A stretch of 64,000 nt of DNA from NCBI GenBank assembly GCA_031441465.1, contig JANOEP010000016.1:1-64000 (forward strand), given 5' to 3'. Position numbers and translations under genes: made by a program. Source of the stretch: a bacterium (GTDB lineage: Bacteria > Krumholzibacteriota > Krumholzibacteriia > LZORAL124-64-63). The notes under the pieces are model-generated. The model did no database searches. It had not been told where the DNA came from and saw only the letters and a program-made list of their open reading frames with translations. This document shows, in pieces, positions 8,578 through 30,476 of the stretch (position 1 is the first letter of the stretch; each line of letters starts with the position of its first letter).

Positions 8578-9889
8578 GACCCTATGCAAAACCCCATCCA
8601 TCACACATTCATCACGGGCACAGCGCCTCGATCGCACAACTGATCTGCTGTTCTTCGGAAATTGAGCCGATAAGTGTCGCATCGATCGCCGAGATCTACC
8701 CGACCCTGCGATCATATTCCCGACAGATTCATCCAAACGTGAAAACCAGGCAGACGCCGGCCCACCCCGATGTCGCCGCATCGCTCGCCGATCGCTACGC
8801 AGCAGCCCGGTAGTACCGACTGTGAAGCCCGCCCACCATCGGTCGCCTCTTCACGGGTCCCAACTTGGCCGGCTCGACAGCCCGCCCATCCGGCGCATCC
8901 TTGTCGAGCCCCAGGTGCGTGCGCGATCCGTGGTAGTACTCGAGGTAGCCGCGAAGGATGCGGCGCGCGTGCTCTTCGTTGAACACGATCATGTGGTTCA
9001 GGCATTCGCGCTTGATCGTGCCGACAACCCGCTCGCAATAGCCGTTCTGCCAAGGGCAGCGCACCGCAGTCACGACCTGCTCGATCCCCATCTGCTCAAG
9101 CGCGGCCACGACGGCGTCACCGTAGATCTTGTCGTGGTCGCGCAGCAGGAACCGAGGCGCCGTATCGAATGGGAACGCCTGGATGAGCTGCAGCGCCGTC
9201 CACTCGGCGGTCGGGTGCGTCGTGACGTTGATGTGCATGATGCGCCGCCGATCCAGCGACAGCACCACGAAAATGTACAGCGTGCGGAACGTCACCGTCG
9301 GCACGGTCAGGAAGTCGATGGCCGCTGTTTCGTGCAGATGATTCCGCAGGAACGTCTTCCAGTTCTGCGTCGGCCGCCCGCGCCGCTTGATCATATAGCG
9401 GGCGACCGTGGACTCGTGCAGGAAGTACCCGAGCTTCATCAACTCGCCGTGGATGCGCGGCGCGCCCCACAGGGGATTCTCGCGGGAGAGACGGCGGATC
9501 ACCAGGATGGCCTCCCACGGAATGCGCGGCCGTCCCGGCTGCAGCGGCCTGCTCTTCCATCGCCACCACATCCGCCATGTCTTGCGGTGCCACTTGATCA
9601 CTGTCTCGGGTTGGACCAGGCGCAGTGGCCGGCGCCATCCATCCCACAGATGGCAGAGCACGATCCAGAACGCTCGGTCGCGGTTCCGGAACGGCGGCTT
9701 CGGGTTGGTGCGCTGCAAGACCAGGATCTGCTGGCGCAGGGCCAGGTTCTCCAGGATCAGGTCGTGGCGGGGGCGCAGGAGATCGCGCAGGAGGGCCAGG
9801 ATGGTGGTCAGCATGTGGGTGGTATCGGCTGGAGATGAGTGCGGCTGAGGTGGAAACTGTTGTGTGGCAATTAGTTAACACCAAACACA
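8578..9889 (-). mobile_element. Single-gene rve-integrase insertion element (ends approximate)
   Basis: Left-end-like TGTGTTTGGTGTTAACTAAT upstream (to 9889) and right-end-like GGATGGGGTTTTGC near 8580-8600 flank a DDE integrase. Confidence 0.5.
8795..9814 (-). CDS. Integrase core (rve/DDE) transposase
   Basis: LENLALRQQ N-terminus, WGAPRIHGEL, AIDF, LLRDHD, PWQNGYCERVVGTIKRECL. Confidence 0.92.
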   Translation of the reverse strand: MLTTILALLRDLLRPRHDLILENLALRQQILVLQRTNPKPPFRNRDRAFWIVLCHLWDGWRRPLRLVQPETVIKWHRKTWRMWWRWKSRPLQPGRPRIPWEAILVIRRLSRENPLWGAPRIHGELMKLGYFLHESTVARYMIKRRGRPTQNWKTFLRNHLHETAAIDFLTVPTVTFRTLYIFVVLSLDRRRIMHINVTTHPTAEWTALQLIQAFPFDTAPRFLLRDHDKIYGDAVVAALEQMGIEQVVTAVRCPWQNGYCERVVGTIKRECLNHMIVFNEEHARRILRGYLEYYHGSRTHLGLDKDAPDGRAVEPAKLGPVKRRPMVGGLHSRYYRAAA

Positions 9890-9939
9890 GCGGATCTTCA
9901 AGGCAGCATCACAATGGACAATTGCATGATGATACCACT

Positions 9940-11109
9940 CTACCCGCCGATCTCCGTCCCCACCTTCAGCAGGTCCATGTAAGCCCCATAGCTGAACACC
10001 CGATCCCGCTGGCGCCCGCTCGTCTCGACCAGGATGTCCGCGTCACACAACGAATCGACGGCCTTGGTCGCCGTCGGCTTCGTGGTCGCGCAAATCTCCG
10101 TGACCAACTTGATCGTCACCACCGGATGACGCGGCAGCTCCTCGAAAAGCCGTGCGCCGACAACTGTGGCGCGTTGCGACTGCAGGTAGCGCAGGCGATC
10201 CCGGGTAACCAGAGCGAACAGCGATCCGATCAACGCGACAGCCTCGTCGGCGACGACGGCGACGCCTTCGAGGAAATAGGCCAGCCACCCTTCCCAGTCT
10301 CCCTCGGTACGCACGGCTTCCAGGCGGTCGTAGTACTCCCACCGATGGATCTTGAAGAAATGGCTCAGGTAGAGCAGGGGTTCGCTGAGCAGTCCCCAGC
10401 TCTCCAGGCACAGGGCGATCAGCAGCCGTCCGACGCGGCCGTTGCCGTCGAGGTAGGGGTGGATGGTCTCGAACTGCACGTGCACCAGCCCAGAGCGAAT
10501 CAGGGGCGGCAGGGGCGACTCAGCGTGCAGGAACGCCTCCAGGTCACCAAGCAACTCGGACACCCGGTGTGGCGGCGGGGGGATGAAGCGCGCGTTGCCT
10601 GGCCTGGTGCCGCCGATCCAGTTCTGCGATCGGCGCACCGCGCCGGGACTCTTGTTCCGGCCGCGGGTTCCTTTGAGCAGCCGGCGGTGGGTGTCGTTGA
10701 GCAGGCGGATGGACAGGGGCAAGCCTGTGGGCCTGTGCAATTGGGCTCGGGCGTGGTTCAAGGCGTCGAGATAGTTGCAGATCTCCTCGACGTCGTCGGC
10801 CGAGGCGCCGCTTGGGGCGGCGGCTTCGACGGCCAGCAGATCCGCCAGCGAGGCCTGCGTGCCCTCGATTTGCGAACTGATGACCGCTTCCCTGCGCACG
10901 AAGGAGTAGACGAACCAGTCCAGCGACGGGACCATGCCCCCGGCAGCTTCCAGGAGTGTCAGGGCCGACTCGGCCGCCTGCAGGCGGTCAGCGAGAACTC
11001 CGGCGATGACCAGGGCAGGGCGCTTCGGCGGCAGGGCATGAGGGACGAACGCGCGGACGGTCTCGCCGGCCACGGTTGTCGATTCGTAGGTTCCGGTGGT
11101 TCGCGGCAC
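9940..11109 (-). CDS. Fic family protein with N-terminal inhibitory motif and C-terminal HTH
   Basis: HPYLDGNGRVGR Fic motif; SSQIEG motif; GTG start with GGGGAG RBS. Confidence 0.92.
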   Translation of the reverse strand: MPRTTGTYESTTVAGETVRAFVPHALPPKRPALVIAGVLADRLQAAESALTLLEAAGGMVPSLDWFVYSFVRREAVISSQIEGTQASLADLLAVEAAAPSGASADDVEEICNYLDALNHARAQLHRPTGLPLSIRLLNDTHRRLLKGTRGRNKSPGAVRRSQNWIGGTRPGNARFIPPPPHRVSELLGDLEAFLHAESPLPPLIRSGLVHVQFETIHPYLDGNGRVGRLLIALCLESWGLLSEPLLYLSHFFKIHRWEYYDRLEAVRTEGDWEGWLAYFLEGVAVVADEAVALIGSLFALVTRDRLRYLQSQRATVVGARLFEELPRHPVVTIKLVTEICATTKPTATKAVDSLCDADILVETSGRQRDRVFSYGAYMDLLKVGTEIGG

Positions 11110-11467
11110 GGGCTCCCCTTTGGCTAGGAAAGGATTGTTGCATAACTTGCGCCGGTAGTAAAGCATTCTTTCTTTGTCCGCAGGCTTGGTAAAGAGAAGG
11201 GTTCGAGGGGGGACGTGCCGGGGGAGCCAATCCTTTTCCAGCGGAATTCGACATACCTTCCGGTTAGCGGCGTGGCCCGGGGCGAGAGCTTTCGGGCTTT
11301 TCGTTTATTTGCAAGTCTGGCAACGGATTGAGCGGTTTTCGCGGGGGGACTGGATTCTCTGGTTTGGGAGGGAGAGTTTGGGGGTCGGTGGGAACCGTTA
11401 GGGGTCACGATTGGACCCCGTAGGGGGGTGGCAAAACTCTCCGAATCTCCGTTTCACAACCCTCTCT

Positions 11468-11705
11468 GATTTAGCGCAGGGGTGCGGATCGATTGCCGAT
11501 CGTAACAGTCATCAAGAAATGGGACCACTCGCTGCTGTGCCGAAGCTGCCGCTAGCTTCTTCGCATGAATTCCCAGCCTGAGGAGCCGGATGCGGGAATT
11601 CCGCGCGTCCGGATCTGTGGGGGAGGCGACTTCCCTGGCCTACCCGACTGTTCGACACCGTTCTCCGATTTAGCGCTCGGCGTGCGGCACCGCCCCGATC
11701 GTAAC
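11468..11705. repeat. Two 39-bp imperfect direct repeats (11468-11506, 11667-11705)
   Basis: Both read GATTTAGCGC-N18-CCGATCGTAAC, 199 bp apart. Confidence 0.7.
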
Positions 11706-27198: not shown

Positions 27199-27571
27199 CC
27201 CGCGCCCCAAGCCATGGACGACTTGACATCCGGTCTGCGTCGCGCCGTGGATCCTGATGAAGACGCACGCCCATAATGCATATAAAATAATAATAGTTCA
27301 TGTGCGCCCATGAATCCGAATCACCGCAACACGCACAATACACCGGAACTGCCATCAAATATCAAAATGCGCTATTGATTTTCAAAGGTTGTTCGGCATA
27401 TGATCGGGATCTAGTGGGGGAGTCTTCTTGGAGTCGGCATCGTGTTGGGACAATCTACGAATCTTGTTCCTTATGCCTTGATCCGATTTCATCACGACTC
27501 TTCCGCGCGATCACCGTGGGAGAACACCTGATCCCACGACGGATTCACAACAGTTGTTCGAGGGGGACAAA

Positions 27572-28663
27572 ATGCGCAAAGTCATCGTGATGCTGTTGAT
27601 CATGGCGATCACCGGCACGGCCATCGCCCAGGACCTGGGCAGCTCGAGGGACATGCCCGCCAAGCGCATGACCAACATCCAGTACACCCCGCCGGCCGAC
27701 GGCAACCGCCAGGGCGGCGACGACGCCTACTCGGCAGTGGCCATCGCCAGCCTGCCCTACACGAACGTCGGCACCACGAACGGCTTCTTCGATGACTACG
27801 ACGTGGCCTGCCCCTACGGCGGCTCGACGTCCCCCGATGTCGTGTACAGCTACATGCCGGCGGCGGACGTGGCGGTCGCGGTCGACCTCTGCGGGTCGGG
27901 CTACGACACGAAGGTCTACATCCTCGACTCGACCCTGACGCCCATCGCCTGCAACGACGACTTCTACTTCGACGCCGGCTGCGGCGTCTACGTTTCGTTC
28001 GTCGAGGCCACCCTGACCGGCGGCGAGACCTACTTCATCGTCGTTGACGGCTACGGCGGCGAGTCCGGCTCGTACGCGATCTCCGTCGACGGCTTCGTGC
28101 CCTGCGTGGTCGCTTGCCCCGCCGACGCGGTGCCCGAGGGCGAGCCCGCGATGTACGACGGCTATGCCGACGAGTACAACAGCGGCTGCAACGGCGTGAT
28201 GAGCAACAACTTCCAGGTCATCGACTGGACCAACGACGAAGACGGCGTCGCCCCCTTCGACGGCTGCGCCTTCCTGTGCGGCAACAGCGGCTGGCACCTC
28301 AGCGCCGACTTCACCGGTGAAGAGCGCGACACCGACTGGTTCGTCGCCACCGCCCTGAACAGCGGCACCATGGAGTTCACGGTCGAGTCCCAGTACCCGT
28401 GCTACCTGTTCCAGCTGACCCCGTCCCCGATGGACTGCGGTCTCGTTGCCGTCGGTCTCCAGACGACGTCCGACTGCGGCGCCCCCGGGACCCTGTCCAT
28501 TCCCGTCGTCGCCGGCGAGGTTGTCTACCTGTGGGTCGGCCCGACCACCTACACCGGCCCCGTCCTCGAGTTCCCCTACTCCATGACGGTCTGCAACAAC
28601 GAGTTCGGCACCGTGTCGAACGAGGACATGGACTGGGGACAGGTCAAGACCCTGTTCAAGTAG
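27572..28663 (+). CDS. Secreted Cys/Asp-rich protein with PPC-like domains and C-terminal WGQVKTLFK motif
   Basis: Signal peptide, SPDVVYSY, YDTKVYI, ACNDD, TYFIVVDGY; followed by a terminator. Confidence 0.85.
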   Translation: MRKVIVMLLIMAITGTAIAQDLGSSRDMPAKRMTNIQYTPPADGNRQGGDDAYSAVAIASLPYTNVGTTNGFFDDYDVACPYGGSTSPDVVYSYMPAADVAVAVDLCGSGYDTKVYILDSTLTPIACNDDFYFDAGCGVYVSFVEATLTGGETYFIVVDGYGGESGSYAISVDGFVPCVVACPADAVPEGEPAMYDGYADEYNSGCNGVMSNNFQVIDWTNDEDGVAPFDGCAFLCGNSGWHLSADFTGEERDTDWFVATALNSGTMEFTVESQYPCYLFQLTPSPMDCGLVAVGLQTTSDCGAPGTLSIPVVAGEVVYLWVGPTTYTGPVLEFPYSMTVCNNEFGTVSNEDMDWGQVKTLFK

Positions 28664-28695
28664 CATGATCCGTTGAAGTCCTGATTGCGGACAGG

Positions 28696-28728
28696 GGGCC
28701 GCCTTCCTTCGGGGAGGCGGCCCTCGTT
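28696..28728 (+). terminator. Rho-independent terminator hairpin; its U-rich tail is interrupted by the intron
   Basis: GGGCCGCCTTCC-TTCG-GGGAGGCGGCCC then TCGTT; spliced junction restores TCGTTTGTT. Confidence 0.8.
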
Positions 28729-29360
28729 GTGCGCCCAGCATGGGCGCGATCCTGGAAGTGCAAGTCTTCCCGTGAGCTGGCCACAGCGAGCGAAGCGAAG
28801 CGCAAGGGCGGAAGGGCGACCGACCGTCCGGAGGAAGCGTGGAACGTAAACCGCGAGCCGAGGGACACGAACCGCATACGAGGCGGAGCCGGCCAGGGCG
28901 AGCAGGCAACGGGCTGCGAAGCCCTCGTGGCCAAGGGCCAGGCGACGTAAATGCGGCGGTTGTGCGGTGAAGGATCGTGTTCTTACCTGGGGAGATCTCG
29001 CCTCGTGCCTGAAAGGGCGACGCCGATCCGACGGCGGAGCGAGAAGTCAGCAGAGGCCATAGTAGTCGGGGCGACCCGACGAAGGGCCGAAGGAGCGGGA
29101 GGAGCAGCCCTGCGGACCTCGGAGTTGCCCCACCTCAGATGTTCACGGCAGTGAAGCTCGCCAAGACTCTCACAAGGGTGAAGCCCGAGTGGTTTTGGCA
29201 GCGAGGCAACCAACCCCGGCGGGCCGTCAGCCAGCGAGACCAGGCGCCGCCCGCGGCAACTCGTGCGACGACCTCAACCACTCCAACCGCCCGGTGCGGA
29301 CCCGCATGCCGGGTGGTGTGGGAGGGGACGCCGGGGTAAACTCGGCGCCCCTATCCCGAT
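28729..29360 (+). ncRNA. Class IIC group II intron, ORF-less (632 nt)
   Basis: 5' GTGCGCCCAGCATGGGCG; TTACCTGGGGAGATCT and GAGAAGTCAGCAGAGGCCATAGTA core; DV 29286-29317 with CGC triad; DVI ending CCTATCCCGAT; no RT ORF. Confidence 0.93.
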
Positions 29361-29657
29361 TGTTCGCTGTTGCGGCCCTGTTACCCGTGAAACGTATTTC
29401 CCCGACGACGCGCACTGGTCTCGCTACGCCGGCCATTACCCCAGAAAATCGCGTCTGTGCAGTGTTTCCCGCCCCGATGGACACGGCCTTCACGAACGAA
29501 GAGGGTTCCATGAAGATGACCGAGGTGCAGTACTGGCTCGGCTTGGACGACGGGCTGGTTTACAAGGCCCTCATCCGGGCGTCCCGGCAGGTGCGCGGCG
29601 TCGAACTGCCGATGGTGGTGGAAATGGCGGTCCCCGCGATGGTACTGGTTACCGACC

Positions 29658-30476
29658 TCATCCCGACCAGTCCACAACCCCCAGATAAGCCGTCAGCAGC
29701 ACCACAGCGCCGAACGCGATGCGGTACCAGGCGAAGGCGGTGAAGTCGTGCCGCGAGACGTAGCGCAGCAGCGCCCGCACGGCGATCAGGGCGCAGACGA
29801 AGGACGTGACGAACCCGACGGCGAGCAGCCCCGCCAGGTCGGTGTTCAGCAGTTCCCTGTGCTTGAGCAGGTCGTAGAGGGCGGCGGCGGTGAGCGTCGG
29901 GATGGCCAGGAAGAACGAGAACTCGGTGGCCGCCTGGCGGGACAGGCCGAAGAACAGGCCGCCGATGATCGTCGAGCCCGAGCGGGACGTGCCCGGGATG
30001 AGCGCGAAGCACTGGGCGAGCCCGACCTTCAGGGCGTCCTTCCAGGTCATCGCGTCCACGTCGACGACGCTGACGGTGTGTCGGCGGCGCTCGGCCCAGA
30101 AGATCATCAGCCCGCCGACCACGAAGGCGGCGGCCACGGGCACGGGCGAGAACAGGTGGGCCTTGATGACGTCCCCGAGCAGCAGGGCCAGCACGCCGGC
30201 CGGCGCGAAGGCGATCACGAGGTTGCCCGCGAATCGCCGCGCCTGCGCGTCCCGGAACAGTCCGCCCGCGACCGAGCCCAGTTTTTGCCGATACTCCCAG
30301 CAAACGGCCATGATGGCGCCGAGTTGGATGAAGATCTCGAACATGCCCCGCTGTTCCTTCTGGAGGAACTGCAGCAGATTGCCCGCGATGATCAGATGAC
30401 CGGTGCTGGAGACCGGCAGGAACTCGGTCAGCCCCTCGACGATCCCCATGATCAGCGCCTTGAACAGCAAGTCCAT
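29658..30476 (-). CDS. uppP: Undecaprenyl-diphosphate phosphatase (BacA)
   Basis: [37 protein letters not shown]. Confidence 0.96.

Follow-up and report, generated by a model that had tools for sequence, protein, structure and literature searches.

We describe a class IIC group II intron that carries no protein-coding region, located at positions 28729–29360 on the forward strand of a 64,000-nt stretch of DNA (the window, to whose positions all plain coordinates refer) from contig JANOEP010000016.1 of the genome of an uncultured freshwater-sediment organism (genome G000). We think it probable, at roughly 70%, that this element is an intact ribozyme without a reverse transcriptase (RT) or maturase gene, that it belongs to an abundant lineage of introns of about 615–653 nt that have no open reading frame (ORF), of the kind described as HYERs, and that it is copied by an RT acting in trans. 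For the lineage, mobilisation in trans is well supported by sequence comparison; for the window copy in G000 it is only inferred, because the sole intron-encoded protein (IEP) of that genome is distant and the local copies are old.

The element is a full group II ribozyme of 632 nt with all six domains and with the ends expected of such an intron: a GTGCG 5′ end (28729–28733), the core of domains I to III (DI–DIII), DV, a DVI with a bulged A, and a 3′ end that reads CCCGAT, its final AT occupying 29359–29360. The parts are as follows.

28729..29360, + strand: whole ORF-less class IIC group II intron (Rfam; a second 632-nt copy that aligns end to end; DNA contigs over both junctions)
28729..29087, + strand: DI–DIII (full-length matches to RF02001 and RF01998; 91% identity to an intron of genome G085)
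29088..29284, + strand: DIV remnant (no RT or maturase; alignable with DIV of the lineage; closes as a domain)
29139..29155, + strand: old IEP start and hairpin (covariation in the lineage; motif also precedes the RT ORF of locus L216)
29286..29317, + strand: DV with CGC triad (RF00029 match; fold; 26-nt core found exactly in at least 121 genome stretches)
29319..29358, + strand: DVI with unpaired U29352/A29353 (fold; outer stem kept with compensatory changes in the lineage)

Three Rfam models match this region over their full lengths: RF02001 (group-II-D1D4-3, model positions 1–170) on 28810–28982 with 99.3 bits (E = 4.9e-19), RF01998 (group-II-D1D4-1, 1–84) on 28999–29087 with 51.4 bits (E = 2.5e-6), and RF00029 (DV/DVI, 1–77) on 29285–29360 with 37.4 bits (E = 1.7e-5, at a permissive threshold). 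DV folds into a lower helix of 10 bp, a 2-nt AU bulge, an upper helix of 3 bp and a GACC loop, with the triad at C29288-G29289-C29290 and the triad G in a G·U wobble. The fold of DVI leaves U29352 and A29353 unpaired 7 nt before the last base, which makes A29353 a candidate branch point. Folded alone, DV and DVI (29285–29360) reach −52 kcal/mol (z = −4.3, none of 200 shuffles as stable), and the entire intron reaches −298 kcal/mol (z = −2.3, 20 shuffles). Class IIC introns are characterised by a compact ribozyme of about 400–450 nt without DIV and by a CGC triad in DV, and the window intron, with 359 nt in DI–DIII and 76 nt in DV–DVI, fits both traits. The first-pass annotation had placed the GTGCG end, DI–DIII, the CGC triad, the bulged A at 29353 and the AT end where we find them, and the folds and the Rfam search bear out its reading of an ORF-less class IIC intron with an intact-looking core.

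DIV amounts to 197 nt (the first-pass figure was ~180 nt) and keeps ~150 nt from the start and ~45 nt from the end of the ancestral domain. Relative to RT-encoding relatives, ~1.2 kb of DIV with the RVT_1 and GIIM domains is gone, and neither the ORF list nor Pfam places an RT or maturase between DIII and DV (29088–29284). What was once the IEP start, ATG at 29139–29141, is still there, with the hairpin TTCAC-GGCA-GTGAA directly after it. It opens the sole notable frame of the DIV region (29139–29339, 66 aa), which we considered as a conserved small protein and rejected, since 12 of 42 lineage copies run into a stop inside the first 44 codons; among lineage copies, residues past about 25 are unconserved.

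The intron sits behind a gene on its own strand, at a site that has the two components of a class IIC target.

27554..28663, + strand: upstream ORF (ORF list; the G086 ortholog shares 84% DNA identity and is alignable to 28728)
28696..28723, + strand: terminator-type hairpin, the structured part of the IIC target (sequence; fold; conserved with CTCGTT at the intron-less sites of G086 and G087)
28725..28728, + strand: intron-binding site 1 (IBS1), CGTT, the end of the 5′ exon (exact complement of exon-binding site 1, EBS1)
28908..28911, + strand: EBS1, AACG, positions 3–6 of an 8-nt loop on a GCAG/CTGC stem in DI (sequence; checked on 26, then 50 copies)
29361..29361, + strand: first base of the 3′ exon, T, presumed IBS3 (T in 38 of 54 lineage copies)

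The upstream ORF encodes 369 aa and matched no Pfam family. The hairpin behind it has a 12-bp stem and a UUCG loop and is followed by TCGTT and then the intron, so that the stem ends 5 nt before the insertion; related copies likewise lie behind hairpins, mostly with T tracts, which bears out the class IIC target preference. A fold of 28690–28730 gives −32.8 kcal/mol (z = −5.4, none of 200 shuffles as stable), the minimum free energy structure prolonging the hairpin stem into TCGTT. EBS1 and the exon end pair at four of four positions in Watson–Crick fashion, as the first-pass annotation had stated, and the match can be set against a background: of the 26 related introns with a readable loop and exon, 24 show pairing of the homologous loop positions to the final four bases of the exon (10 of them fully Watson–Crick), compared with a mean of 4.5 and a maximum of 11 in 5000 shuffles. 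Of 50 copies of the lineage defined below, 32 have all four positions paired to the exon beside them (20 fully Watson–Crick; shuffle mean 6.4, maximum 15), and exon positions −1, −2, −3 and −4 are paired in 43, 46, 45 and 42 copies, each above every shuffle. Because the homologous positions pair so regularly in both sets, the match in the window is more than chance. A 6-nt guide, as reported for HYERs, was rejected for these introns: pairing at exon positions −5 and −6, seen in 31 and 36 of the 50 copies, is at chance level (shuffle means 30.4 and 32.5). The short EBS1–IBS1 pairing typical of class IIC is thus borne out at four positions, and no search was aimed at EBS2.

The 5′ boundary is fixed by two genomes of the same genus. 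The G086 ortholog of the upstream gene, together with its hairpin, aligns at 84% identity precisely to 28728 and then diverges, homology breaking between GGCGGCCCTCGTT and CCGTCAGG; G087 behaves alike, and both keep the hairpin and CTCGTT. The intron-less site that the first-pass annotation suggested looking for in relatives is therefore seen, on its 5′ side; downstream of it the flanks of G086 and G087 are not syntenic with the window. Both junctions of the filled site are bridged without differences by DNA contigs of two metagenome runs. An orthologous filled site was not found in the five same-genus genomes searched. The hairpin (28696–28727) also recurs elsewhere in contigs of G085–G089 as matches of 26–32 nt at 93–100% identity, and for the upstream gene there are several weaker matches to paralogs; the terminator type is thus a repeated one, and the gene is one of a multi-copy family.

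The wider family of this ribozyme is readily sampled through DV, whose 26-nt core occurs exactly in many phyla. Among the DV-core matches listed, a script located both intron ends in 30 loci, which fall into three size groups.

1832–2152 nt, n = 18: RT-bearing size
624–641 nt, n = 4: ORF-less size
222–1421 nt, n = 8: other deletion forms, two of which look like false 5′ ends

ORF-less copies from a contig of the window genome (C53), from a betaproteobacterial metagenome-assembled genome (MAG; locus L063) and from a gammaproteobacterial MAG (L115) share a DIV of 82–84% identity, which is better conserved than their DI–DIII (about 79%). A scan pattern made of the former IEP start and the hairpin that follows it (the DIV motif) turned up in at least 121 metagenome stretches. 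From 80 of these that were fetched, 72 are ORF-less, one carries an RT ORF behind the motif (L216), two are disrupted, and the shortness of the other five allows no call. DV begins 158–164 nt after the motif in 71 of the 80, and one further ORF-less locus has a 1-nt DV insertion. Complete elements number 51, of which 48 measure 615–653 nt, and the window copy groups with L171, L173, L188, L196 and L230, the closest copy being L188 at 85% identity. The RT ORF of L216 indicates that an RT-bearing form of the lineage exists or existed.

An RNAalifold consensus predicted from 42 copies contains 181 base pairs, 87 of them with compensatory changes, and the covariation term contributes −21.3 of −212 kcal/mol. 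DIV is included in this pattern. It closes on itself (columns 389–395 with 582–588) and at least eight helices show many compensatory changes; the fourth pair of the hairpin after the old ATG, for example, is G–C in 32 of the 42 copies and A–U in nine. Guides vary too, with 22 different EBS1 words across the lineage copies. These comparisons indicate that the lineage is a working RNA and not debris, and that the DIV remnant is a conserved, covarying RNA domain.

Copies at many sites that share one DIV remnant, including identical copies at different terminators, show that the lineage moved after its ORF was lost, and two genomes display this movement in different settings. The genome of L115 (G092) holds three ORF-less copies 0–1 nt apart beside three RT-bearing copies with a ribozyme 96–97% identical, and on its contig C23 an ORF-less copy (9973–10604) directly abuts an RT-bearing one that starts at 10605, with no spacer. 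This head-to-tail pair behind a single terminator (G092:C23:9973–12439, with locus L299 spanning the junction) would fit a class IIC target defined almost wholly by the 5′ exon. The genome of L063 (G091) holds seven 624-nt copies on seven contigs behind seven different hairpins (L292–L298); five are identical, one differs by 1 nt and one by 43 nt, and the divergent copy has EBS1 AAAG instead of AATG, a perfect match to its own exon end CTTT. A maturase-domain ORF was not found in the 7.8-Mb G091 assembly, which contains a single RVT_1 ORF of unassigned type (C63:19853–20521). Five of the six genomes with ORF-less copies do contain maturase ORFs (one in G000, two in G064, six in G092, one in G093 and four in G094), and at the metagenomic locus L201 an IEP ORF lies 387 nt downstream of an ORF-less copy. 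The first-pass proposal of a non-autonomous element mobilised in trans is accordingly well supported for the lineage, through its shared DIV, its diverse guides and its identical multi-copy sets; for the window copy it keeps the status given at the outset.

Within G000 (3.49 Mb in 74 contigs, 96.8% complete) a second ORF-less copy lies at C53:28003–28634. It is also 632 nt long and aligns end to end with the window copy at 78% identity overall, 81% in DI–DIII and 99% in DV–DVI. It lies behind the hairpin of another gene, an ORF ending in AKARLVAAKKGR that by eye we take to be atpC, and its EBS1 loop CGAT matches its exon end ATCG perfectly, so that, with AACG and CGTT in the window, guide and site have changed together. 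The conservation of DV–DVI and the two perfect EBS1 matches would fit maintained ribozyme function, be it splicing or mobility, between which they do not distinguish. The same genome encodes one full-length IIC intron (C49:75039–76924, locus L003) of 1886 nt, which lies behind a hairpin with EBS1 CGAG against TTCG and specifies a 478-aa RVT_1+GIIM protein, the sole RT and the sole maturase of the assembly. The first-pass annotation had suggested searching the genome for identical ORF-less copies and an RT-encoding parent; an ORF-less copy is present, at 78% identity and so not identical, and the one RT-encoding intron is a distant relative. A closer RT-bearing relative is found in the same genus, a 1847-nt intron at G085:C60:16333–18179 with a 451-aa RVT_1+GIIM protein, which is 91% identical to the window copy in DI–DIII and 96% in DV–DVI; a similar intron lies at a contig edge in G089. 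Pfam matches in the G085 and C49 proteins are limited to RVT_1 and GIIM, so the endonuclease-less IEP typical of class IIC is borne out in these relatives, the window intron itself having no IEP.

Some match to the window intron occurs in 28 of the 91 genomes of the family, which are also the 91 genomes of the order. A ribozyme tree, from which L047, L011, L073, L114, L110, L068 and L100 were left out as truncated or doubtful, interleaves ORF-less copies with RT-bearing ones, a pattern that would be explained either by recombination of the one form with the other or by loss of the ORF on several occasions. A single origin of all ORF-less copies was rejected on account of this scatter, which is also the reason that we claim common descent just for those sharing the DIV motif. 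At least one other deletion of the ORF is independent, since the DIV of L112 is 80% identical to that of the RT-bearing L069. As a side observation, DI–DIII of the window intron is nearer to the RT-bearing G085:C60 copy than to the ORF-less C53 copy, and its DIV is of the ORF-less lineage type. Another derivative in the family, at G016:C20:17564–17963 (positions 1501–1900 of L011), has lost most of DI–DIII, keeps a 3′ piece of the IEP and is mutated in the triad region of DV; this 400-nt element is a truly decayed relic, in contrast to the window copy.

A scan for promoters and terminators returned no site in 28300–29800, and as the intron and the upstream gene share a strand, its transcription would have to come from read-through. 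After the hairpin the sequence reads TCGTTGTG with the intron in place and TCGTTTGT, which is T-richer, in the ligated exons or the empty site, and the intron-bearing DNA fails the terminator rule. The insertion probably weakens the upstream terminator, since it parts the hairpin from its T-rich tail, and the altered termination that the first-pass annotation had entertained is plausible on the same grounds. A search of sequencing runs listed 20, among them two DNA runs with most of the stretch and six RNA runs with small shares of it; four were examined (X1, X2, X8 and X17, two DNA and two RNA).

Established knowledge of class IIC introns, which recognise a hairpin and a short IBS1 and reverse-splice into DNA (PMC12584367), underlies the mechanism that we propose. 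The element would have reverse-spliced into DNA at this site, guided by the hairpin and the 4-bp EBS1–IBS1 pairing, and cDNA would have been made by an RT acting in trans, for which the most likely source is an RT-bearing IIC intron of the same genome with its IEP. The retained DIV, including the hairpin of the old IEP start, would be the likely docking site for that protein. Parting the hairpin from its T-rich tail would weaken the terminator enough for the intron to be transcribed, today presumably by read-through from the upstream gene, and the element may still be able to excise itself.

Several observations weigh against this account of an intact ribozyme copied in trans. As to the ribozyme, the RF00029 score of 37.4 bits is slightly below the gathering score of 40; the GACC loop of DV is not of the GNRA type, though a non-GNRA loop is the norm in the lineage; and no column of the intron alignment covaries with the base that opens the 3′ exon, as an EBS3–IBS3 pairing would predict. 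Sampling by the DIV motif forces conservation of that motif, and some loci represent one site sampled twice, 44 of 54 copies being non-redundant at 97%. As to mobility, the two local copies at 78% identity give no sign of recent movement in G000; the C49 IEP is 51% identical to that of G085, and in DI the C49 ribozyme shares about 66% identity with the window copy. Seven copies in a G091 assembly with no maturase do not fit the model of a cognate IEP acting in trans, unless that MAG is incomplete. As to expression, the joint of 28728 to 29361 (CCCTCGTT followed by TGTTCG), which splicing or an empty site would give and which the first-pass annotation had named as the spliced junction, was not seen in the four runs; the RNA runs cover just conserved parts of the intron, with several differences from the window copy, so that these matches come from relatives.

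These points bear on the alternatives to different degrees. The reading of the element as the dead remains of a full-length IIC intron, shortened by deletion and undergoing neutral decay, takes up the slightly low RF00029 score and the fact that relics exist nearby, such as the 400-nt derivative in G016 and loci of 222, 437, 512 and 657 nt. It was the outcome that the first-pass annotation had tied to a single copy with broken core pairings and no cognate RT; G000 holds two copies and one RT-encoding IIC intron, and the core covaries. All six domains are moreover present under full-length Rfam matches, the deletion is typical of the lineage, DV following the motif at 158–164 nt in 71 of 80 loci, covariation runs throughout the lineage, EBS1 and IBS1 pair perfectly and DV–DVI is 99% identical to that of the C53 sister copy, so that we regard a relic as very improbable. 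An immobile passenger, which merely splices or is read through and is tolerated or mildly useful in tuning termination or transcript stability, can draw on local evidence: the copies in G000 are old, no cognate IEP is present there, and the hairpin is parted from a T-rich tail that follows the stem in the ligated exons, the filled site failing the terminator rule. The contrast between DV–DVI (99%) and DI–DIII (81%), together with two perfect EBS1 matches, speaks for function, without telling splicing from mobility; the lineage has clearly moved after ORF loss, and an orthologous filled site was not found in the five same-genus genomes. An immobile element here seems quite unlikely to us.

The remaining alternative is a protein-independent ribozyme of HYER type, a guided hydrolytic endonuclease of DNA and RNA that would propagate, or serve its cell, without a group II IEP, through another RT or a route at the DNA level. 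ORF-less IIC introns with hydrolytic cleavage of DNA and RNA have been reported, HYER1 at 637 nt being close to the 632 nt of the window intron (PMC12990946 and PMC11754743); G091 has its seven copies, five of them identical, with no maturase-domain ORF found in 7.8 Mb, and G000 has no cognate IEP. G091 is nonetheless a MAG of unestablished completeness and contains one RVT_1 ORF, five of the six genomes with ORF-less copies have maturase ORFs, and in G092 the ORF-less copies stand beside RT-bearing ones with a 96–97% identical ribozyme, one pair directly abutting. The covarying DIV with its old IEP start hairpin also resembles what is expected of a maturase-docking site, and we judge a protein-independent element unlikely. 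A broader possibility, which we put forward tentatively and hold to be rather doubtful, is that the ~630-nt lineage is a long-lived hyperparasite that crosses phyla, its DIV serving as a generic docking module for any IIC IEP, even one only ~50% identical such as that of C49, or that it spreads without a group II IEP, be it through an RT of another kind or along a DNA route that needs no protein; the seven copies of G091, where no maturase was found, hint at the latter version. Either version, if true, would overturn the view of bacterial ORF-less introns as short-lived dead ends.

For copying by an RT in trans, the reading that we prefer, the experimental precedent is found in Thermosynechococcus elongatus, where ORF-less IIB1 introns are spliced and mobilised with RTs that ORF-containing copies encode (Mohr et al., 2010, summarised in PMC8643678). 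The present lineage is alike in having ORF-less copies beside RT-bearing ones (the three-plus-three pattern of G092), in keeping its exon pairings and in having spread. It differs in being class IIC, in targeting terminator hairpins where the IIB1 introns, by that summary, use long EBS1/EBS2 sites, and in occurring in many metagenomes, at least two proteobacterial classes and G000, compared with one genome. RT-encoding class C introns of bacteria take insertion sites behind intrinsic terminators (Robart, Seo and Zimmerly, 2007, via PMC12584367 and PMC8643678), and those of G085:C60 and C49 share with the window intron the ribozyme architecture, the DV sequence and a target made of a hairpin followed by a short IBS1; the window intron lacks their RVT_1- and GIIM-coding DIV. 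A review (PMC4424553) describes bacterial ORF-less introns as rare and of short life, with related introns that encode an IEP nearly always alongside, and introns without an IEP make up 888 of 13,041 bacterial introns in one count (PMC8919778).

HYERs are the closest published counterpart, being ORF-less class IIC introns that cut RNA as well as DNA by hydrolysis (Liu et al., Science 2024, doi 10.1126/science.adh4859, as described in PMC11754743 and PMC12990946). By the same sources, HYER1 (637 nt; PDB 8K0P/8K0S) and HYER5 dimerise through a palindrome in DIII, and HYER2, 3, 4 and 6 are monomers. The window intron is likened to them by class, lack of an ORF and length alone, not by sequence or activity; beyond these, the lineage resembles HYERs in its short guide in the EBS1 loop and in its multiple copies in some genomes. 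Differences lie in the natural sites of the lineage, which pair at four exon positions where six are reported for a HYER guide, and in the DIII hairpin TCGGG-GCGA-CCCGA (about 29066–29079), whose GCGA loop is not palindromic, unlike the DIII of the dimeric HYERs; a kissing dimer of the HYER1/HYER5 type is accordingly not expected. HYER-type introns are reportedly able to propagate in multiple copies without an IEP.

Since ORF-less IIC introns are already in print as HYERs, novelty is lowered, and the window intron is a good but ordinary example of its kind, clean and with its target pairing intact. As a named ORF-less IIC lineage we met references to HYERs only, and the supplements of Liu et al. 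(2024) and the work of Simon et al. (2008) may already include the present lineage. The covarying DIV domain, the abundance of the ~630-nt lineage and the contrast between G092 and G091 were not met in the accessible literature, and may in part be covered by the HYER paper or by Simon et al. (2008). The two genomes represent two natural patterns, one in which copies have spread next to cognate RT-bearing introns and one in which they have spread where the assembly shows no maturase gene, and the second sharpens the question of how ORF-less IIC RNAs copy themselves. With HYERs under development as protein-free DNA cutters, a large alignment of natural copies in which the guide positions are mapped is also a practical resource.

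A second pair of hairpins resembling DV and DVI lies elsewhere in the window, at 11581–11648 on the forward strand, with an AGC triad and an RF00029 score of 38.3 bits (E = 2.9e-5), again below the gathering score. No DI–DIII match was found in the 2.5 kb upstream of it (9000–11580), and this pair may be a 3′ fragment of a different group II intron.

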